Source of the DNA: Saccostrea echinata
Taxonomy: Eukaryota
Assembly: GCF_033153115.1 (NCBI RefSeq)
Contig: NW_026889777.1
Location: forward strand, 18,104,001 to 18,168,000
Reading direction: 5' to 3'
DNA length: 64,000 nt
Translations under genes and position numbers: made by a program
The notes under the pieces: generated by a model
Seen by the model: the letters and a program-made list of their open reading frames with translations, nothing else
What the model was told of the DNA's origin: nothing
The model's database searches: none
Shown: one piece after another, positions 23,736 to 62,363 of the stretch
Numbering within the stretch: the first letter of the stretch is position 1
Layout of the letters: each line of letters starts with the position of its first letter

Positions 23736-24572
23736 ATGCAGTATCATCCAGGATTATTGAGACAAAGAGGACACGGACAGTTTGTCTATCATAGAGGTTT
23801 ATTACGTCAAAAAGGACACGGTGTTGTAGGTGGAATTATCTCTGGATTGGCTGGAGCCCTTACCCCTAATCCTACTGGATTTCCAATACTAAATCTTCTT
23901 CCAGACAGTTTGCTTCTACCCAAATTTAGGCGAATTCGCCAGCATTTAAGATCTCAAAGAGGAGGAAATTTTATAGACTTCCTGTCGGGAATGGTACCGA
24001 ACCTACCTATAGGGATGACTTTAAAAGAAGCTGTCCAATTAGGCTCAGGCCGGCGGCGACAAAGAGGTCGAGGATTTCTTAAAGATCTAGTCAAAATGGG
24101 TCGTAATCAAGCCTTGATTGCCGGAGCTAAAATAGGAGCGGATGTGATTAAAAAAAGGAAAAATATCAAAAATGCTCTTTTAACTCATGGACTCAATGCC
24201 GTTAAAAATACGGGCTTATTTGCTCTCAATAGAGGAGGAAGTCTAGCTTTTAAAAAGATGAATAAGAAAGGTCAAAAAGGTAAAGGGAGAAGAAAAACAA
24301 GAAGAAGAAGAAGAAGAGGGCAGAGAGGGAGAGGAGTTGTGAGAAATTTACTGAAAACGGGAGCCAAACATGCCTTGACTGCTGCCGCTAGAACGGGGTT
24401 AGACGTGTTAGAAAATAAGAGATCTTTAAAAGACGCTGTCAAAACTCACGGAGTACAAGCCCTGAAACAAAGATTGAATCTCGGTAAGAAAAGAAGAAGA
24501 AGAAAAAAAGCACCTGTGTTAGCCCGAGGAGGTCCTAAGAAGAGAAAAAGGGGTTTAGATATCTTTGATTGA
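23736..24572 (+). CDS. Basic virion precursor protein with repeated QxGxG/QxGG motifs and amphipathic helices
   Basis: TATA at about 23680. Seven QxG(x)G motifs, a duplicated ~55-aa helix module and Arg tracts. Lies between penton and MCP. Confidence 0.8.
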   Translation: MQYHPGLLRQRGHGQFVYHRGLLRQKGHGVVGGIISGLAGALTPNPTGFPILNLLPDSLLLPKFRRIRQHLRSQRGGNFIDFLSGMVPNLPIGMTLKEAVQLGSGRRRQRGRGFLKDLVKMGRNQALIAGAKIGADVIKKRKNIKNALLTHGLNAVKNTGLFALNRGGSLAFKKMNKKGQKGKGRRKTRRRRRRGQRGRGVVRNLLKTGAKHALTAAARTGLDVLENKRSLKDAVKTHGVQALKQRLNLGKKRRRRKKAPVLARGGPKKRKRGLDIFD

Positions 24573-24646
24573 GAGACACTATAAATAGGAAAGTCGAGTG
24601 AGATTGACCTTCATTTGTGAAAAATCCATCTTAGTAGACAGACATC

Positions 24647-26068
24647 ATGTTGCAACCAGATTCCTGTGCTTGTGGGATGAACAATTTACAATTGTTCCAA
24701 GTCCCCCCGACTAATATTGCTTTAGAAGACTCCAAATGGGAAGAATATTACCCCATTTCTAGTACTTTAAATTCGGATACGACTCCCATTGAATTTGAAA
24801 TTAAAGGACAAGGAGATCAATATCTGGATTTATCTCAAACGTATGTTCAAATGGTGTGTAAATTCACCAAAGACGATGGTACTGATCTGACTGGAGCTAA
24901 CACCACTTGCGCCCCGGTGAATAATATCTTTCATTCCTTGTTTACGGAAATCGATCTCAGTGTCAATGGAAAAATAGTGTCTCCGGGAACCGATACTTAT
25001 CCTTACAAAGCTTATCTGGAGAAATTACTTTCTTACAAACCCAGAACTTTAATGACCCAGATGAGAGCCTGTAGTCTGTGGGAAAAAGATACGGCAGGAC
25101 ACATGGACGAAGTGGGGGTAGCAGACCTTGGAGTGGCTCAAAATAAGACATTTGATGTAACCCCAGGTGCAAGTGGTGGTGCCGATACTGTGACCATTGA
25201 CGAACCCATCGTCCCAGAGTTACCGGCCAATTCTAGAAACGAAGGATTTAGAAAACGTCACCAGGCCATCAAAGATAGTAAGAAAATACCCTTGTTTGAT
25301 CGTTTACATCTGGATCTATTTCAACAAGACCGATTTCTACCCAATGGAGTAGACGTCCGTTTGAGATTTAATCGAGCTAGACCTCAGTTCTATATGATGA
25401 TCAAAGCACTAAGTACGGGAAAAGTGAAAATATTGAACATGGTCTTGTGGGTGAGAAAAGTCAAACCCACGGCCGTCATGATGAATGGCATTAATCAAAG
25501 TTTGAACACTCATAGAGCCAAATATCCTTTGAGAAGAGTGGAAGTGAAAACCTTTACCATACTGACAGGAACTCAATCTAAGATTACGGATCATCTGTTT
25601 CAAGGCCAGATGCCTAAACGTCTCATTTTAGGCTTTGTGGAAAATGCGGCTTTTAACGGAGATAAAACTAAAAATCCGTTTAATTTTCAAAACTTTGGAA
25701 TTAAGAAATTAGATGTCAGTATCAACGGAGAGACCATGAGTACTCGTTGTTTTGAGCCCAATTTCAATGAAGATTTATATCTGAGATCTTATCTGAGTCT
25801 ATATCAAGCCTTGGGAAAATTAGGAGAAGATTGGGCTCCGGACATCACCCTAGAAGAGTATAAAAACGGATACACTCTGTGGGGCTGGGATTTCACCAAA
25901 GATCAAGAAGCGCAATCGGACAAATTCCACATCATAGAAACCGGAAATCTGAGAATAGAAGTCCAATTTACGAACAATACGGTGAACACCTTAAATTGTG
26001 TGGTGTATGCAGAATTCGATAACCTGTTAGAAATTAACAAACAGAGAGAAGTGAGTATTGATTACTAA
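24647..26068 (+). CDS. Major capsid protein (double jelly-roll, PY)
   Basis: [89 protein letters not shown]. Confidence 0.95.
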
Positions 26069-26571
26069 TGGATACGGGACAGTTGAGAGAAGTCTTATCC
26101 AGAGAATTAAAGAGTTCTTTTGGTGGAGTGTACCCTTTGGATATATTACCGGATCAATTAAGACTTGGAGAAAAAGCCATCGTGGTGAATACGGATCCTC
26201 AAGATCAACCTGGAGAACACTGGGTGTGTCTGTACGTGAGCAGTCCAGTGGTGGAATATTTTGACTCTTATGGATTTCCTCCCTTACAGAAAGAAATTCA
26301 AGACTTTATCCAGCGTCATGCTCACCAATGGATTTATAATCCGTATCGATATCAAGATTGGAAGACCGATGTGTGTGGACAATATTGTGTGTATTATTTA
26401 CATCAAAGACACAAGTTGAGAAAGAAAGCAGACGAGTGGTTATTTCCCTTTGACCATAGTACAGCTTTACAAAGAGATCATTATGTAGCTCAATGGTTTA
26501 AAGACACTTATCATAAAAGACCTACGGGTCATGGACAAACTTGTCAATGTTTCTATCAAAATGTCATGTAA
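26068..26571 (+). CDS. Adenain-like cysteine maturation protease
   Basis: FGGVYP.D, VNTDP..PGEHWV (His), YFDSYG (Asp), Q..TDVCGQYC (Gln/Cys). Confidence 0.95.
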   Translation: MDTGQLREVLSRELKSSFGGVYPLDILPDQLRLGEKAIVVNTDPQDQPGEHWVCLYVSSPVVEYFDSYGFPPLQKEIQDFIQRHAHQWIYNPYRYQDWKTDVCGQYCVYYLHQRHKLRKKADEWLFPFDHSTALQRDHYVAQWFKDTYHKRPTGHGQTCQCFYQNVM

Positions 26572-26723
26572 TTAATTGTTGTTATCAATAAAAAGAATTG
26601 GAAAAAAAAAATCTGTGTTCTTGTTGTTTTTTTTAAAAAAGGGGGTTTTCCCCATGATACTAAATATAGAAAAAAAAGGTATATAAAAAAAAGAAAAAGA
26701 AAAAAGAAAAGCCTCATTTGATC

Positions 26724-27224
26724 ATGAGTCTCCAGGAGATACAGGGTGATTTATTAAACATTCCTGTAGAAGCTATAGTACATCAATGTAACTGTTTAAC
26801 AGTCAGAGCTCATGGATTGAGTCAAAGTATAGCAGATAAATATCCTCAAGCGAATTTGTATGCCACCCGCAGACCTTTAGGGTCTAGAAATTTAGCCTTA
26901 GAAGAGGACAGGGATAAGCCAGGAACCATTAGGGTGTTTTCCTCACAAACACCTGTGGTCATTTGTTTATTAGCTCAATGGGATTATGGCAGAGCAAGTC
27001 ACAGACCTAAAAGAATCTCCACTTATCAGGACACCCCACAAAATAGAGAGCAATGGTTTCAAGCCTGTTTACAAGAATTGGGAAATTTACCTTATAAAAC
27101 TCTTGCTTTTCCTTACAAGATTGGATGTGGCTTAGCTGGAGGAAATTGGACTCATTATAGACATTATATTGAACAATTTGTACACACTTATGACAAACAT
27201 GTGTACATTCTTCATAAACATTAA
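26724..27224 (+). CDS. Macrodomain (ADP-ribose binding/hydrolase, Poa1p/TARG1-like type)
   Basis: IQGDLL, IVHQCNC, AHGLSQSIADKYP, PGTI, LAFPYKIGCGLAGGNW. TATA at 26680. Confidence 0.88.
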   Translation: MSLQEIQGDLLNIPVEAIVHQCNCLTVRAHGLSQSIADKYPQANLYATRRPLGSRNLALEEDRDKPGTIRVFSSQTPVVICLLAQWDYGRASHRPKRISTYQDTPQNREQWFQACLQELGNLPYKTLAFPYKIGCGLAGGNWTHYRHYIEQFVHTYDKHVYILHKH

Positions 27225-28471
27225 CTGTGTATGTGTGTGTTTTTTATGTGATATAAAATAAATCTTTTTTTTTTTGAAAAAGTACCTTTTTATAGGAATG
27301 AAGTGCCATGCTTCAGCCTCCACAGCAGTCTGATGCACTCATAAGCAGATCCTTGTGAGTGGGTGGGTGGGGAGCCCAGTAGAAAACACTAGGAATTTTT
27401 TTTTTAAAATTCCATGAGATCATCCAGTTTGGCTCACAGTACAGTTTTTTTTTTCTTTTTCCCCCTGTAATATATTGTCAATATTTAAAAAAATGGAAAA
27501 AAATTAAAAAAAATCATCAGCACTTGGAGATACAAAAAAAAAAACCTTGCTATCTTTTAACCAACTATGGTATTATAATTTACATTATCAATTATCTTTG
27601 ACTTATCCATTTTTTTTTTTATCCATTTTTTATAAAATATATATATATATAAACATGTATAGTAAAAAACAGAATTAAAATTTGTATCTCATTGAAAAAC
27701 TTCAAAGTTTTGTTTGTTTCTATATGTTGGATGATTAACTGTGTGTGTTTTTTTCTCCAAAAAAAAGGAAGAGTACAGCCCAGGCTTCACTTCATAGAGA
27801 CTGGATTATAGATGGTTAGGAACCCTAAAAAACATATCTTCCAATGTTGAGGACTGTAGAAATAAAATCCATTTTTTTTGTTATGATGACAAAAATACTA
27901 CATGAAACAATGCATGTTTTTAAATGTAATGGAATAAAAAAAAAGAGTAATATATATATATATATATATCAAGACCTAACTTATACTGGAATCAATGAAA
28001 TTTCATTCATAAAAATATATTTTTTTAAAAAATACAGACTTTATTTACTATGGACCATAAATGATGACATGAATAGCAGGCCATACTTTAAGCACATGAC
28101 AAACCATTATCTCAAAATCATGCAGAACTAGGTTCATTAGCATAGCTGACATTAAAACATATAGGTGAGGGATAACATAATCACAACAATAAACAATGTG
28201 TTAAAAAACTTTAAACGACTTACAGCGTGGATTACACGCCTTGAACAGGGAATAAAAAAAACCTTGCCTCGAGAGTATCATGGCGGCATAAACACAGAAA
28301 ATTAAGTCGTACTTAAACACATTCCCTAATGATTTGAGAAAATCACTGTCTTTCATGTGTGTATTTTTTTTTTATTGGACATGGGGAGAAAGTCTATAGA
28401 TTTTTGTTGTTGTTGTTATAATATGAGTTGACAAGAAAAAAAAAAATTATTTTAAGTGATTATGAGTTTAA

Positions 28472-28525
<54 letters not shown>

Positions 28526-28600
28526 AGTGACCTCTGGTGTTATTATACGTTTCTTTTATAACCGTGTATTAAAAAGGTATCTTTTCGTAAAATTTGGGTT

Positions 28601-28616
28601 GGCCCTTAAAAGGGCC
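28601..28616 (-). terminator. Histone-mRNA-type 3' stem-loop (distal) with HDE-like GAAAAGA at 28586-28580
   Basis: Minus strand CAAC-GGCCCT TTTA AGGGCC-AACCCA matches GGYYYU-UYUH-ARRRCC exactly. Confidence 0.75.
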
Positions 28617-28657
28617 GTTGTTGATTTTTTTTCTTCAGGGTTTACTCCCTGGGACTT

Positions 28658-28673
28658 GGTCCTTAAAAGGACC
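28658..28673 (-). terminator. Histone-mRNA-type 3' stem-loop (proximal copy)
   Basis: Minus strand CAAC-GGTCCT TTTA AGGACC; compensatory base-pair change relative to the distal copy. Confidence 0.7.
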
Positions 28674-28806
28674 GTTGTTTTTTTTTTTTTTTCTTCAGGG
28701 TTTACTCCCTGGGACGTCGCCCTCGTCCACGGCCAGTCACTACTCCGTTGTCTGGTGTTCTTCCTCCCTCGATGGTCACGCCACGGCCTCGGCCCACCCT
28801 GGGTGT

Positions 28807-29415
28807 TCAGGGACGGGTAGGAGGGGTGGGAAGAACGGGCTCCGGGCTCCCGTAACGACAGAGGGGGCAGCCCTCTCCTCGGTCTATCAGGCGGACCGCA
28901 CAGAGGAAGCAGGCTGGCCTCTGGCGGCATCGACCGCACAGGAAGTTGGACAACTCCTGGTCACACAGGCAGAGGCAGCAATATCCTTCGGCCACAGAAG
29001 CCTGGATCCCCCACAAGGGGATGCAGCCCTGGAAGACCGCTCGGTCCTGGGGAGGTGACGAAACCCCGTCGAGGAGGCGGTGGACTGCTGCTCCGGCCGG
29101 AGACGAAGGGGGGGACTCCGGACTGTCCGGCAGGTCGAAGTTCCTGCCCTCCTCCTCCGGCCGCGGATGGTATACGGGGCGTGGCTCCCCTCTGCTCCCT
29201 GCTGGTGAAGGCCTGGATGGCGAGGGCCTGGAATAGGGGGTGGTTCTGGCTCTCCTGGCGATGTTGCTTGCGACGAAGGTCCTAAGATCTCCGACGCGGA
29301 TCCTGCCCATATTGAAAACGGCAAACTCCTCCCCGGTGTCTTGGTTCCGAACCACCATCTGCAATATGACCTCCACTCCTGGCTGAATAGCTATATTCTC
29401 AGTAAAGAGAGACAT
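28807..29415 (-). CDS. GC-rich Pro/Ser/Arg-rich protein with C-terminal C4C4 RING-like domain
   Basis: CCLC-x10-CGRC-x5-CFLC-x10-CPLCRY. Upstream TATAAATA (about 29492-29485) and TCATTCG Inr. Confidence 0.8.
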   Translation of the reverse strand: MSLFTENIAIQPGVEVILQMVVRNQDTGEEFAVFNMGRIRVGDLRTFVASNIARRARTTPYSRPSPSRPSPAGSRGEPRPVYHPRPEEEGRNFDLPDSPESPPSSPAGAAVHRLLDGVSSPPQDRAVFQGCIPLWGIQASVAEGYCCLCLCDQELSNFLCGRCRQRPACFLCAVRLIDRGEGCPLCRYGSPEPVLPTPPTRP

Positions 29416-29968
29416 GTCGAATTCCTTGTAGTGTCGCTGGAACAGCTCGCTAACGAATGACAGTTAACAGCTGATCAGCGTCGGTATTTATACACACAGC
29501 GCGAGCCGAAAAGAGAGCACCCTAAAAGCCCGGATGACGAAGAGCTCAGAAAATCATGGAAAAATCAAAATTGTGTTATTTGTGTTTTGTGAATACCTCT
29601 ATTGGAGTAAATAACATATTATGGGATCATATATACATTCAAACCTTCTAGTAAAAGAATGAAGGTAAGTTTCGAGAATGATTTCACAGTATTTTTCATA
29701 CATGACATTGTTCCCTTGTTTAGAACAGGCTCATTTATGCCGAAGCGAAGGGCTAACCTTGACTGACCTGAATACATAAAATAAGTCGTTTTAGACTTTT
29801 GAGAGTGTAACACAAAGAAAACTTATGGCAGGCAATAAGATTGAACTTAGGGAAGAGTGTCTATATAGTTTTCAGATCAAAAGAATCGTTACAAGTGTAA
29901 AAATAAACTTAGCGTCGGTTTCGGGATAAACACAAGGGAGGTCAAAGGTCAGCCATTTTCAGAAAATC

Positions 29969-30314
29969 AATGTATAAGACTTTGTATAGGGAATATAAGA
30001 ATCTTTTCAATCCCGACCTTTTCAGATAAAAATTTTGAGATGAATAGAATCAGATTGGTCTAAAAACAAATTGTATACACTTTATTTGCAGTGGGAAAGT
30101 TTAGATTTTTTTAAATAAGAACAAAACATCCCAGCGTCTAAATGTATAGACTTGTATAGGGAATATAAGAATCTTTTCAATCCCGACCTTTTCAGATAAA
30201 AATTTTGAGATGAATAGAATCAGATTGGTCTAAAAACAAATTGTATACACTTTATTTGCAGTGGGAAAGTTTAGATTTTTAAATAAACCAGGATTTTATA
30301 GACTCAGCGTCTAA
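29969..30314. repeat. Tandem ~170-bp duplication in Polinton intergenic DNA
   Basis: GAATATAAGAATCTTTTCAATCCCGACC... at 29991 and 30161. Each copy has an inverted CCAAT (GATTGG). Confidence 0.85.
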
Positions 30315-30370
30315 CGGATACATGATGACGTCATTACTAAACAATAACAAACAAAAAACTTAGTGTCTTT

Positions 30371-30880
30371 TCATTCTTTTATTTCTTTTTGGTTTAACAA
30401 TTGTTCCAAATGTTGATTTCTGCGTTGAAATCTCATTCGATCGGCTACTAGAGCCATCCATTCACTTTTCCGATCTTCGGGTGGTAAATAATGAATTTCA
30501 TTCAAGTCTGTATTAAAAGTCACACATTTCTTAGTCTCTCTGAAATTTCCACATATTTCATCCCGTATTGAATGCATATTTTCTCCATCGATTCTATTTC
30601 CTGGTAGAGTAAAATCACTTTCCTTGCTTGGGGATGGCATAAAAAAGTGTAAGGCTTTCCTAGATAGTGGGTCAGGCTTAACCCATACCATTTCTGGGGC
30701 AGAGTTTCTTTCATGCGTTGACATAGAAAATGCAGTGTAGCTAGTCTCCCCAAGTTGGGAGGATGTAACAGGGCCAGGCATTGTAACCATAAGTCTTGAA
30801 TGGTTTCTATGATGGTAGTGGCTCTCTGAAACACTTGTTCTGCCTGGGGAGGGAGAGGTTGTTCGTGTTGTTCTATCCAT
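30371..30880 (-). CDS. PPP1R15/GADD34-, ICP34.5-, DP71L-like PP1-recruiting eIF2alpha phosphatase adaptor
   Basis: C-terminal KKCVTF (RVxF-like)..EIHYL..DRKSEWMALVADRMRFQRRNQHLEQLL matches the R-x2-W-x5-DR-x-RF-x-RR signature. The start codon is uncertain. Confidence 0.85.
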   Translation of the reverse strand: MDRTTRTTSPSPGRTSVSESHYHHRNHSRLMVTMPGPVTSSQLGETSYTAFSMSTHERNSAPEMVWVKPDPLSRKALHFFMPSPSKESDFTLPGNRIDGENMHSIRDEICGNFRETKKCVTFNTDLNEIHYLPPEDRKSEWMALVADRMRFQRRNQHLEQLLNQKEIKE

Positions 30881-30933
30881 TGCATTAACAAATCATAGCC
30901 TTCTAAAATCAAAGAGTGGTATTGCTTCGACAT
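30520..30933 (-). CDS. Overlapping 137-aa ORF of unknown function (first ATG after the promoter)
   Basis: Follows TATAAATA at about 30979-30972. Open over 120 codons that overlap the PPP1R15-like frame. Confidence 0.5.
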   Translation of the reverse strand: MSKQYHSLILEGYDLLMQWIEQHEQPLPPQAEQVFQRATTIIETIQDLWLQCLALLHPPNLGRLATLHFLCQRMKETLPQKWYGLSLTHYLGKPYTFLCHPQARKVILLYQEIESMEKICIQYGMKYVEISERLRNV

Positions 30934-31108
30934 GACAATTGATTATGAACAGAAGACATGATATTTTATCTTATTTATACCCCTGTTATTTAAAATTTAT
31001 TTTTAGACTTTGGAAAAACCAATAGACTTAATTTTTTTTTTTAAATTTTTTTTTAAAAATCTATTTTTAGACTTTGGAAAAACCAATAGACTTAAATAGA
31101 ATAGGAAG

Positions 31109-31195
31109 GTGTGGGTTTTTCCCAGATCTCACATCTCACATCTCAGGAATTTCCAGATCTCAGAACGTGCTGAGCGCGTGTGGGTTTTTCCAGGA
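31109..31195 (-). repeat. Displaced inverted copy of the left sub-terminal block (about 11045-11145)
   Basis: CAGATCTCACATCTCACATCTCAGGAATTTCCAGATCTCAGAACGTGCTGAGCGCG is the reverse complement of about 11067-11122. Confidence 0.9.
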
Positions 31196-31283
31196 CCCCT
31201 TCCTTTTAAAAAAAAAAAGTATAAAAACCAGCGCAGAGAGTGTATGGGTCATCATTTTCAGTCAGAAGTCAGAGGTGTATACC

Positions 31284-57924: not shown

Positions 57925-60900
57925 GTTGTAGAACTAGTTTTTGCATTTTCTTTTTCCCGGATTGAGCAATTCTGCTCTGAATCCGTTTCTTATTTATAGG
58001 GTAAATTTCGGGAAAAATAGGTTTATGTTCGTTCCCGATTCTTCAATTACCGACCATAGAAGTGTTTCCGGTATTAAACTGGCACTGAACTTTTAAAGGT
58101 AAACAAATAAAAATAAATACTCTGATTATCGATCTTTAAAACTCTTTCAACTATGCATTTGCAACTTTGTTTCGTACAGGTACATACTTTTTTCTTTCTT
58201 TTCTTTTTGTTTTGTTTATACAGTCTTTTTTCTTTTTTGTTTACATTTGTGAGTGAATGTGTGTTTATGAGAGAATACAATAGTCATGTAGTTGAATATT
58301 TCGTTTGGAGGCTGCCTAAGTTTTACAGATCAGTTTTCGTTGATGAGTGATAATATAAAAATTGTAACGGTGAACTGCCAAGGTCTAGCGACTACTCAGA
58401 AACGACAGGATGTCCTTAACTATTATAGAAAAAAGTGTTACTCTATTTTATGTCTGCAAGATACACATTTTACCTATGAAACTGAACCATTTGTAGAAGC
58501 TCAGTGGGGTTATAAGTGCTATTTTAGTTCATATAAATCTAATTCACGAGGAGTAAGTATTCTTTTTAACAACAATTTTGAATTTAAAATCCACAGAGAT
58601 AAGAGAGATAAGGAAGGAAATTTAATTGCTCTTGATATTACCATTGAAGACAATAGGTTAACCCTGGTAAATGTATATGGACCAAATACTGACTCTCCGG
58701 AATTTTATGAAAAGATTCGAGATATTTTTCTAGAATTTGACAACGAATATTTTGTACTATGCGGTGATTTAAATCTTGCTCTTAATCCAGAAATAGATAC
58801 ATATAATTATGCAAATGTTAATAATCCAATGGCTCGCGAAAAATTGATAGAAGTTATGGAAGATTTACAAATGATTGATTATTACAGGATTTTAAATCCA
58901 GAAAAGAAAGTGTTCACATGGAGGAAAAAAACCCCTGTCAAACAAGGCCGTTTAGATTATATTTTAATATCTGAAGGTCTATCTAATGTTGTTGAAGAAT
59001 TCACTGTTAAACCAGGGTACAGGTCTGATCATTCTATTGTTGTTTTAGAATTAAAATTCAATCCCTTCATTAAAGGTCGTGGTCTATGGAAGTTTAATAA
59101 TGGTTTACTGAATGACAAGGTATATGTTGAAAAAGTGAAGCAAACTATAGAAAGGGTTAGGGGTCAATATTTACAAAACATAAATGACATTGAAAGAAAT
59201 GCTATTCTTGTTGAAAGTATGGATGACCGTTTATTCCTTGAAATTCTTCTTATGGAAATACGGGGAATAACTATTTCTTATTCTTCATTTAAGAAAAATG
59301 AGAGAGAGAGGTTAGAAAAATCCCTATTAGGAGAAATAGAAAGATTGGAAACAAATAATGATAATAATAATAATACAGATATTTTGAAAGATAAAAAAGC
59401 TACCCTTGAAAATTTAAGAAAAGTTAAAATGCAAGGCCATTTAATCAGATCACGTGCTCGGTGGGTAGAAGAGGGTGAAAAACCAACAAAATATTTTTGC
59501 AATTTAGAATCAAGAAACTATATTAATAAAATTATTAAAAGGGTTGAGATAGATGAACAACATACTGTTTATGATCAATTTGAAATTTTAAACCAAGTTA
59601 AATCTTTTTATGAAGATCTGTATTCAAATAAAGAGTCAGAATGTATTGATATGGATTTAACTGATATTATTGATCCAGCTGAAGTTAAAAAACTTGACGA
59701 GATGACTTCTAATAGTCTTGAGAATGATATAGAAGAAAGTGAAGTTTTAGATGTACTTAAGAATATGAAAAATAATAAGTCACCAGGAAGTGATTGTTTT
59801 ACTGCTGAGTTTTTCAAATTCTTTTGGATAGATTTGAAATGTTATATTTTAAATGCAATTAATTGTATTTTTTCAAAGAAAGAACTTCCAATTTCTCAAA
59901 GACTTGGGATTATCTCCTGTATACCCAAAGGTGATAAACCAAGACAGTTTTTAAAAAATTGGCGTCCAATTACTTTATTAAATGTCTTGTATAAACTTAT
60001 ATCTGGATGTTTAAGTTGTAGAATAAAGTCTACTCTAGAATTTCTTATTTCTGATACACAAACAGGTTTCATTAAAGGTAGATATATAGGGGAAAATACC
60101 AGATTTATTTATGACTTAATGTCTTACACAGAGTTAAATAATATTCCTGGTCTGTTGATGCTAATTGATTTTAAGAAAGCATTTGACTCAATTTCATGGC
60201 CCTTTCTGTATAAAGTTTTAAAGTATTTTGGTTTTGGAAAGAACATTATCGACTGGATTAAGATCCTAAATACAAATTTTAAAGTTTCAGTTTTACAATG
60301 TGGATTTTTATCAGAACAATTTTCTATTCAAAGAGGTTGTAGGCAAGGAGATCCTGTTGCTCCCTATTTGTTTCTCCTTTGTGCTGAAATTTTGGCTATT
60401 CTCATAAAACAAAACAGAGATATAAAAGGTATAATAGTAAATGAAAAAGAACACAAAATCTCTCAATATGCAGATGATACCTCGCGTGCCCTTGATGGTT
60501 CACCAAAATCTTTGTTTGCTGCTCTTGATACATTGGATTTATTTTCACAAATATCCGGTTTAAAGATAAACAGTTCAAAGACAAAAATTATTTGGATTGG
60601 CTCAAAAAAATTTTCAAGTCAAGTTTATCATCATTCAAGATGGAAACTAGATTGGGGATCCACAACTTTTAATTTGCTTGGTATAACTTTTTCTGTAGAG
60701 CTAGAAAATATTATTGACATAAATTATAAACTTATTTTACCAAAAATTAAATCAATGATACAACAATGGAAAAGACGAATACTTACACCTATTGGTCGCG
60801 TCACCGTTGTAAAAACGCTCATTTTACCAAAACTTACTCATTTATTTATTTCCCTTCCTACCCCTAGCTATGATAAAATATCTTTATTGTGTAAAGACCT

Positions 60901-62363
60901 TTTTGAATTCATATGGAAATCAAAAATTGATAGAGTTAAAAGAGATATAGTCACTCAAGATTATTTATCTGGAGGATTAAAGATGTTAAATGTTGATTAC
61001 TTCATAAAATCATTGAAATGTACATGGGTCAAAAGATTGGTAACAGAAAGTAATAAGCCATGGCTAGACATATTTTTTGGAATTAATGGTAATGATGCTG
61101 TAAACAAATTTATGGATTTTGGTGATGCTTTTATTTTAAATAGTCTAATACCTCAAAACAATATTTTCTGGTTTGATGTTTTTACTTCATGGTTACATGT
61201 TCTGAAGAATGTAGATCAGGATGTTCATATTGAATACAAGGCTTGTAATATTCCTATATGGTATAATTCAAATATTAAGGTAGATAATAAGAGTATTTTT
61301 ATAGAAAATTGGTATAAAAGTGGAGTTAAAAATATTGGAGATTTTTTGTCAGAAGATTGTAAATTTTTATCAAAATCTGCCTTCCAAGAAAAATTCAGTA
61401 TTTCCAATGTAAGCTTAATGCAGTATAATAGCACAGTTTCTGCCATTTCTAAATTTTTAAAGAATATGTCAATAGATAGACTGAGTTTGAAAAAACATTT
61501 TCAACCTAATTTACCTTTTTATTTTGAAAATATTTTTCACTATGAAAAATGTACAAAGAAAATTTACAATTATATAAACAAAAATGATATAATTCCTACA
61601 GCAATTCCAAAGTGGAATCAAGACTTATCTCCCTATGGAGTGGCAGATATTTGTATTAAAGATGTTTTTAAGGTTTGTTTTAAGACTACCTCCGATTCTT
61701 CTGTACAGTGGCTACAATATAGAATTCTACATAGGATCCTCCCTGTAGATTCTTATCTTAAGAAAATTAATATAAAATCTACTGACATTTGTAAGTTCTG
61801 TGCTCAGGAAACTGAAACTTTACTGCATGTATTTGTCAGTTGTGATCATATTGTATCTTTATGGAGGAACTTGAGTTTACATATATACAGAACAATTTCA
61901 AAAAGAGTTGGATTCAATGTCAAAAATATTATCCTAGGTGAATTACCACTTACTAAGGACAACAGAATTGAAAACTTTATGATACTATATACAAAACAAT
62001 ATATTTTTTCATGTTTACTACAACCAAAAATACCTTCATTTACTGGTTTACTGAATTATTTGAAAATGAAACACAATATTGAAAGATGTATGTCTATTAG
62101 TAACTCAAAACTGTTTTATTTTGAAGAACAATGGATTTTGTGGAAAAATATTTTTGAACAAATGTAAGATAATTTGACAAGTTTTTGATATTTAGTTTAT
62201 GATAGAAACAATTGTTGATAAGCTGATTACTATGAAGCAACCTCCATATTAATTTAAAAAGGCAAATAGATGTATGAATGGGTGTGTGAGTGCTAAATAT
62301 CCATTGTAATTTTGCTGCTAATTTAACTTGATTTTGTATGTTATACAATGGATAATAATAATA

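Follow-up and report, generated by a model that had tools for sequence, protein, structure and literature searches.

A conserved histone-type 3' end signal predicted for the RING-like gene of Polintons in the oyster Saccostrea echinata

A histone-type signal at the end of a Polinton gene

We analyzed a window of 64,000 nucleotides from the oyster Saccostrea echinata (assembly GCF_033153115.1, contig NW_026889777.1, positions 18,104,001 to 18,168,000 of the forward strand; window coordinates count from its first letter), in which a Polinton/Maverick, a virus-like mobile element, carries on its minus strand an intronless gene for a RING-like protein that is followed by stem-loops resembling those at the 3' ends of histone mRNAs. 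Polintons are recognized by inverted repeats at their termini, by ends of the form AG...CT and by a target duplication of 6 bp, all of which are found at 10945..32346 (21,402 bp, ends AGTAGT...ACTACT, duplication CACGTT). The element encodes a protein-primed DNA polymerase (PolB; PF03175, E 1.5e-57), an integrase with rve (E 7e-11) and chromo domains, a packaging ATPase (Pox_A32, E 3e-6), an IAP, a double jelly-roll-like capsid open reading frame (ORF), whose look-alikes score 0.98 with PF21738 on 14-24% of their members, and a candidate cysteine protease weakly matching S273R of African swine fever virus (E 0.089).

The RING-like gene (28807..29415, minus strand) has 202 codons in the window copy, the frame of which ends about 30-40 codons before that of most sister loci (232-243 codons). 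Upstream of it lies a TATA box (29485..29492), which is retained in sisters L002, L025, L034 and L039 and present in variant form in L074, L082 and L083, and 32 nt past this box a TCATTCG motif (29454..29460) which we take to be initiator-like. The Cys-rich domain (C146-C186; 28858..28980) displays a conserved pattern of cysteines with an arginine after the last of them, and its Pfam matches are under cut-off (zf-C3HC4_3, E 0.067). An AlphaFold2 model of the sister L002 contains a confident domain at residues 131-190 (predicted local distance difference test score 92-97) and a small β-rich N-terminal part, the remainder being disordered; its list of structural matches is filled by RING and U-box chains (Z 3.3-4.8). 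A Foldseek search against PDB and viral structures gave nothing at E 0.001, profile scans gave no histone family match, and the best score in a protein atlas search, 0.87, is a lead only; the named relatives are from Saccostrea oysters. Differences at second codon positions are fewer than those at fourfold sites, indicating that the ORF is under constraint, and the protein is predicted to be an E3 ligase.

Past the stop of this gene are two minus-strand hairpins, the proximal GGTCCT-TTTA-AGGACC (28673-28658) and the distal GGCCCT-TTTA-AGGGCC (28616-28601), which are the sole two of their kind in the window. Both have the 6-bp stem, 4-nt loop, G-C as the second pair of the stem, and U at loop position 3 given for histone stems (10.64898/2026.10.14.759114; the literature passages covered here come from this paper, PMC8502044, PMC5011920, PMC13525598 and 10.64898/2026.08.17.745202), and both fold in the structure of minimum energy as well as in the centroid structure (z -3.99). 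A downstream element, GAAAAGATACC, occupies 28586-28576 and starts 14 nt past the distal stem. The first-pass annotation of this DNA had placed the hairpins and a purine box at these positions, and had seen no AAUAAA between the stop and the hairpins; all of this is borne out, there being neither AATAAA nor ATTAAA on the minus strand from the RING stop to the hairpins, with the next one at 28376. A scan with the Rfam Histone3 model (RF00032), which it had proposed as a check, returned the distal hairpin (28621-28575) at 36.5 bits over a gathering cut-off of 34 (E 5.8e-7), the sole gathering-level match in the 64 kb. In 200 mononucleotide shuffles of the window there were 0.05 hairpins per window and not one hairpin with a downstream box, and genome-wide the hairpin-plus-element pattern with a UUUA loop has 263 matches as against 0 with the reversed control.

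The hairpin pair is the product of a tandem duplication of 57-59 nt, the first unit of which (28657..28715) comprises a small CAGGG/CCCTG hairpin, an A tract and the histone-type hairpin; the two hairpins are therefore not independent. The U-A/C-G swap between their stems, earlier read as a compensatory change preserving structure, has a wobble intermediate in L142. Beyond the element lie a third motif (GGTT...GAAACG; 28548..28563), which is also seen 3' of host histone genes, and a fourth (AACACCAG...GTCAC; 28525..28541), which recurs in the host's genes for sperm basic proteins and in a single unrelated family of repeats, followed by a poly(A) signal (28371..28376) that is conserved in sisters and is a candidate fallback end.

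Most other transcription units of the element end with AATAAA or ATTAAA near their stop codons, as had been noted before for those on the plus strand. An internal contrast is provided by a second Cys-rich, distantly related RING-like ORF (20975..21421, plus strand), which ends in AATAAA and has no hairpin.

Correspondence with the 3' ends of host histone genes

The host comparison set comprised 12 histone-family ends, with H1, H2A, H2B, H3 and H4 represented from two clusters along with one isolated H2A and a pair of genes for sperm basic proteins. All 12 have the hairpin, 12-13 nt and then GAAAAGAT(A/G)C; the window copy has the same box after 14 nt, and most first or single units of the Polintons have spacers of 13-14 nt. 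The host element, GAAAAGATAC, and the downstream element of the Polinton gene agree letter for letter, the form GAAAAGATACC being present in host H1, H2A, H2B, H3 and H4 genes, and the sequence of the distal stem-loop is also that of a single H2B cluster of the host, of an H2A gene and of the genes for sperm basic proteins. Of the motifs further downstream, GAAAC is found in 9 of the 12 host ends and 18 of 21 units of lineage 1 of the Polintons, against a background of 4.5%. The Polinton gene is thus like metazoan replication-dependent histone genes in being intronless, in its TATA box, in having a 6-bp stem with a 4-nt loop about 25 nt past the stop, and in the purine-rich element at a fixed spacing. 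It is unlike them in encoding a RING-like protein, in residing in a mobile virus-like element outside the histone clusters, in its frequently tandem hairpins and in retaining a downstream poly(A) signal.

Most host core histone genes (L145-L147) have stems of the GGCCG-UUUC-ACGGCC type, in which the fifth stem position is G. Among those listed, the best Rfam Histone3 matches are of the GGCCC/GGCTC types, and GAAAC follows the element in most host histone genes. Host-type signals gave 413 and 146 matches with two other patterns. As for the trans-acting factors, an SLBP domain is encoded by the host genome. A gene for the U7 small nuclear RNA (snRNA) was not found in the genome, where the best match of RF00066 (27.4 bits) is under the cut-off and lacks a complementary 5' end, and U7 pattern scans stayed at control level (7 versus 10 control and 72 versus 61 control matches).

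Conservation across sister loci and lineages

The first-pass annotation had staked its proposal on retention of the hairpins in sister Polintons. A DNA search, in which the best 40 of 295 candidates were scored, gave 39 sister loci, and hairpin plus element is kept in every one of them, with two hairpins in 34 and one in 5. In a protein search with the RING-like sequence the best 150 of 212 candidates were scored, and the 73 of these from contigs C1-C29, the contigs for which the list of pattern matches is complete, were checked: 70 have the hairpin (57 with the exact pattern and 13 with a variant loop, base or element), and the other three are two truncated copies and one match on the other RING gene. 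The distance of about 135-205 nt between stop and hairpins first reported is seen in the window copy but is peculiar to it, since the first hairpin lies 23-30 nt past the stop in 32 of the 39 sisters; even in divergent subfamilies with unrelated C-termini this distance is 25-28 nt. Histone-type hairpins are usually 25-60 nt past the stop codon, according to the passages covered of 10.64898/2026.10.14.759114.

Between L002 and each of L074, L082 and L083 the proteins are only 38-49% identical and fourfold sites differ by 64-70%, whereas the hairpin differs at 0 of 16 positions; the element is identical or one A longer (the 5/11 differences counted in L074 are a single extra A in an ungapped count), and the spacers differ. 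Invariance of the hairpin while synonymous sites are near saturation and the spacer differs argues for selection rather than recent exchange. Stem position 3 does vary, occurring as C-G, U-G (L142) and U-A, and one subfamily (L081-L084) has arrays of 4-5 hairpin-plus-element units.

A second, decayed lineage of Polintons, with 26% capsid identity and a different gene order, also has the RING gene followed by hairpin and element, perfectly so in L100 and with stem mismatches in L099; the sequence downstream of the signal differs from that of lineage 1. Loci L099, L100, L155 and L156 and the region G000:C33:26.72-26.80 Mb represent a cluster of nested, decayed lineage-2 Polintons with three PC4-like ORFs.

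Beyond this genome, a profile search gave 45 RING relatives, two of which (P0002 and P0013, from ENA) contain peptides that, at the peptide level only, are compatible with a hairpin followed by the element after 12-13 nt. Among the 9,821 windows in this peptide screen there was no further match to both, and seven windows that fitted the stem without the element were dropped as chance. No RING relatives with DNA context were found in viral or metagenome contigs searched with two alignments, and a single-sequence protein search gave none among 384 candidates. Hairpin patterns in viral contigs had no matches with one pattern and two (L109 and L110) with another: the former is antisense inside a phage ORF and was set aside as chance, and the latter (L110:1660-1680) is a histone-like hairpin ending an 89-codon ORF on a high-G+C IMG/VR contig, without the element of this host.

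Other carriers of the signal and possible origin of the downstream block

The first 100 of the 263 matches with a UUUA loop divide into 82 that lie past Polinton RING genes, 11 past H2B genes, 6 past a GDSL/SGNH ORF and 1 past a different repeat. Besides the Polintons, the genome has at least three non-histone families with the same hairpin-element signal, and the earlier statement that the signal is essentially restricted to histone mRNAs consequently does not hold here at the sequence level.

Several such carriers can be described. Loci L106, L107 and L149-L152 belong to a repeat, dispersed and about 4-6 kb long, whose GDSL/SGNH hydrolase ORF has the hairpin and element at its end. A family of small intronless coiled-coil-like ORFs (L085, L101-L103; 104-153 aa) also ends in the histone hairpin plus element; no Pfam family matches it over cut-off, relatives occur in Crassostrea and Pinctada, and one member is part of a 1.57-kb tandem array of at least 82 copies at G000:C1:36.04-36.18 Mb. 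A further repeat (L105, L154, L164, L165, L169 and L173) has a hairpin, often with one stem mismatch, then the element, GAAAC and ACACCAGG, and no clear ORF; it forms a 2.4-kb tandem array at G000:C16:6.49-6.53 Mb. Finally, L157, L158, L159 and L160:8752 represent a dispersed family with a GGCCG-type host hairpin and the element, and no identified gene.

With regard to provenance, the host genes for sperm nuclear basic proteins (PL-type, H1-derived; L056 and L057) have the same hairpin, element and two further downstream motifs as the Polinton; unlike the Polinton RING gene, these are histone-H1-family genes with a linker-histone domain. When the sequence past the element was compared with 17 host ends, the sperm basic protein gene was the best match for all six lineage-1 queries (z 5.3-12.2), and it was not the best match for lineage-2 ends. 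Capture from a sperm protein gene is nonetheless put forward as a hypothesis only, since an unrelated repeat family, which lay outside the comparison panel, likewise has the fourth motif after its signal. Judging from these alignments, the lineage-1 block might have been captured from a germline chromatin gene or might be a shared extra signal.

Proposed processing of the RING-like gene transcript

Taken together, comparison at the sequence level indicates that the viral gene carries a real, selected histone-type 3' signal. We consider it probable that the RING pre-mRNA of the Polinton is a substrate of the SLBP/U7/CPSF73 machinery, with the cut about 5 nt past the distal stem and downstream polyadenylation as a fallback. 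The gene, intronless and TATA-driven, would be transcribed by RNA polymerase II (Pol II); SLBP would bind the hairpin, U7 would pair with GAAAAGATAC, and CPSF73, by the mechanism outlined in the covered passages of 10.64898/2026.10.14.759114, would cut near 28596, giving a non-polyadenylated mRNA with two SLBP sites in the window copy. For transcripts left uncut, the conserved poly(A) signal some 225 nt downstream would provide the end. In the passages of PMC13525598 considered here, histone locus bodies are described as concentrating processing factors, and duplication of units into arrays might raise the efficiency of cleavage at dispersed or episomal loci away from such bodies. Contigs of four presumed-RNA runs cover coding and non-coding sequence alike, patchily and at low depth, with no pile-up of molecule ends.

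Several observations weigh against this proposal. At the position of the 28376 poly(A) signal, about 225 nt beyond the predicted cut, 30 of the 39 sisters have AATAAA, 6 have AATTAAA and 3 have neither, and 13 of the 39 have a further AATAAA no more than 70 nt from the element; given this conservation polyadenylated forms may dominate. In the window copy the proximal hairpin is without a host-type downstream element, only the distal one having it, and the stop lies 133 nt before the first hairpin, beyond the usual range; this distance is atypical because the frame ends early. The element is altered in some subfamilies (GAATAGAT, GATTAGAT, or one A more or less), L034, L127 and L128 have C in place of loop U3, and spacers in the inner units of arrays are 8-9 nt long. 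The hairpin is found in two of five lineage-2 remnants, with one of the other three retaining only the tail of the element, and support for the RING fold is modest, with Z at most 4.8 and the Foldseek result given above.

The conserved downstream signal suggests two alternative ends rather than a purely non-polyadenylated message. Of the original proposal that the Polinton borrows the histone pathway, the cis signal stands as host-matched and conserved, and an exclusively non-polyadenylated product seems less likely. Of the two alternative poly(A) sites it had named, the 28376 signal is conserved in 36 of 39 sisters, and AATACA at about 28571 can be discarded, most sisters reading GATACA.

The downstream poly(A) signal also figures in the alternative that histone-type cleavage mainly serves as a terminator or insulator, stopping Pol II from entering a convergent or following viral gene while the working RING mRNA is mostly polyadenylated. 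The lineage-1 RING gene is indeed convergent with a macro-domain-like gene of the plus strand, the ATPase gene of L100 comes on the same strand directly past the hairpin, and arrays would fit a fail-safe terminator. We nevertheless regard this as unlikely, as other Polinton genes end in ordinary poly(A) signals and the distance from stop to hairpin is kept at about 25 nt, a spacing that, as far as the covered part of 10.64898/2026.10.14.759114 goes, matters for translation-coupled decay and not for termination.

Distinctly unlikely, in our estimate, is a decoy function, in which an abundant multi-hairpin viral RNA titrates SLBP or U7 and reduces histone supply, leaving viral DNA under-chromatinised or the cell cycle stalled, with the protein being secondary. 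The extra hairpin without a downstream element in 34 of the 39 sisters, the arrays of up to five hairpins and the preponderance of Polinton RING genes among the first 100 of the 263 UUUA-loop signals could be accommodated by it. Against this, the matches to the two other patterns make host-type signals numerous, cleavage of arrays in which every hairpin has its own element would eliminate the units further downstream, and the RING ORF is itself constrained.

It is very improbable that the signal is a passive relic, a histone-family gene end acquired once from the host and carried or homogenised between copies without use. A captured block would match the sperm basic protein genes past the element as the lineage-1 queries do; yet hairpin and element are invariant at near-saturated synonymous divergence while spacers differ, pairing survives changes in the stem, and the signal recurs in the lineage with 26% capsid identity amid different downstream sequence. 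A DNA-level site drawing histone locus body factors to the element with no RNA processing would agree with the two further conserved motifs being 3' of the predicted cut and hence outside the mRNA, but is scarcely credible given the strict strand and post-stop position, the stem complementarity with G-U tolerated and the fixed hairpin-to-element spacing, which are RNA-level features.

If the RING pre-mRNA is processed in the histone manner, the benefit might be that a short-lived regulator, probably an E3 ligase, is made only in SLBP-active cells (S phase, cleavage embryos and germ cells), a suggestion that we find attractive but hold tentatively; these would be the cells in which a self-replicating, integrating element gains most. 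In a broader scenario, more speculative and on the whole rather doubtful, mollusc Polintons would be viruses in which a master regulator is made by way of the histone mRNA pathway so as to sense S phase or the germline state. This arrangement would be old, being shared at 26% capsid identity; in one lineage a sperm chromatin gene would have supplied the signal from its 3' end, and the signal would then have multiplied into arrays. The arrangement would be one case of a wider lophotrochozoan non-histone SLBP/U7 regulon, and the two further motifs might be undescribed parts of the processing signal.

Relation to known viral systems

Among viral regulators, the immediate-early RING E3 ligases ICP0 of herpesviruses and IE2/PE38 of baculoviruses resemble the Polinton gene product in combining a RING with long Pro/Ser/Arg-rich disordered regions, and their genes likewise have their own TATA promoters. 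No sequence match or significant structural match was found between these proteins and the Polinton RING protein, and the mRNAs of ICP0 and IE2/PE38 are polyadenylated.

The element as a whole is like the animal Polintons or adintoviruses with 'Oncoid' genes (PMC8502044) in its protein-primed PolB, integrase, ATPase, capsid, protease-like ORF and IAP, and adintovirus accessory genes with paired CXXC motifs recall the RING gene. In the passages covered of that paper Oncoids are defined by Rb-binding motifs near CXXC and are usually upstream of PolB, whereas the RING gene is near the opposite end of the element; an E1A/Oncoid identity was considered and rejected, LxCxE not being seen in the protein. 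The same passages make no mention of histone-type 3' ends ('polyadenyl' occurs 0 times, and 'histone' once in an unrelated sense). The stem-loop/U7 route is described as a histone-mRNA pathway in the parts of 10.64898/2026.10.14.759114 and PMC13525598 covered, and a 2026 survey, in the part covered, reports no protein components of the pathway in large DNA viruses. Within the literature searched, covered largely as open-access titles and the openings of abstracts, we found neither a viral gene with a histone-type 3' end nor a description of one in Polintons, in agreement with the first-pass annotation. The signal and the Polinton are each known, and their combination was not met with in that literature.

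If the prediction is correct, a viral non-histone gene selected to keep this cis signal would represent a virus-host interface that the literature searched did not show, and would provide a handle on the timing of animal Polinton activity and the cells in which it occurs. Such genes would be natural substrates for asking if processing of the histone type can operate at a distance from histone clusters. Expression of the RING gene may escape RNA-seq with poly(A) selection, and the 5' sequence to be expected in the U7 snRNA of the host can be predicted from the shared downstream element.

Additional features of the element and the window

Next to the RING gene, an ORF at 30371..30880 (minus strand), which has no hairpin, contains a PP1-binding region that is presumably GADD34/ICP34.5-like (PF10488, E 8e-4, below the curated cut-off). 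It is one of two overlapping ORFs in different frames at 30371-30933 on the minus strand, both of which are conserved in divergent subfamilies. The tail of the zinc-knuckle ORF contains a second copy (84%) of the beginning of the macro-like gene (26698-26785 and 31792-31879), and the element also contains 41-nt repeats and an exact 129-nt direct repeat (21563-21717, 30992-31128 and 29982-30280). In the L160 subfamily copy the place of the macro-like gene is taken by an ORF (L160:24-524, plus strand) which, by eye, we take to resemble the Rep endonuclease domain of CRESS viruses. Outside the element, an ORF of 1274 aa at 58343-62167 (plus strand) looks by eye like the endonuclease/reverse transcriptase of a non-long-terminal-repeat retrotransposon.
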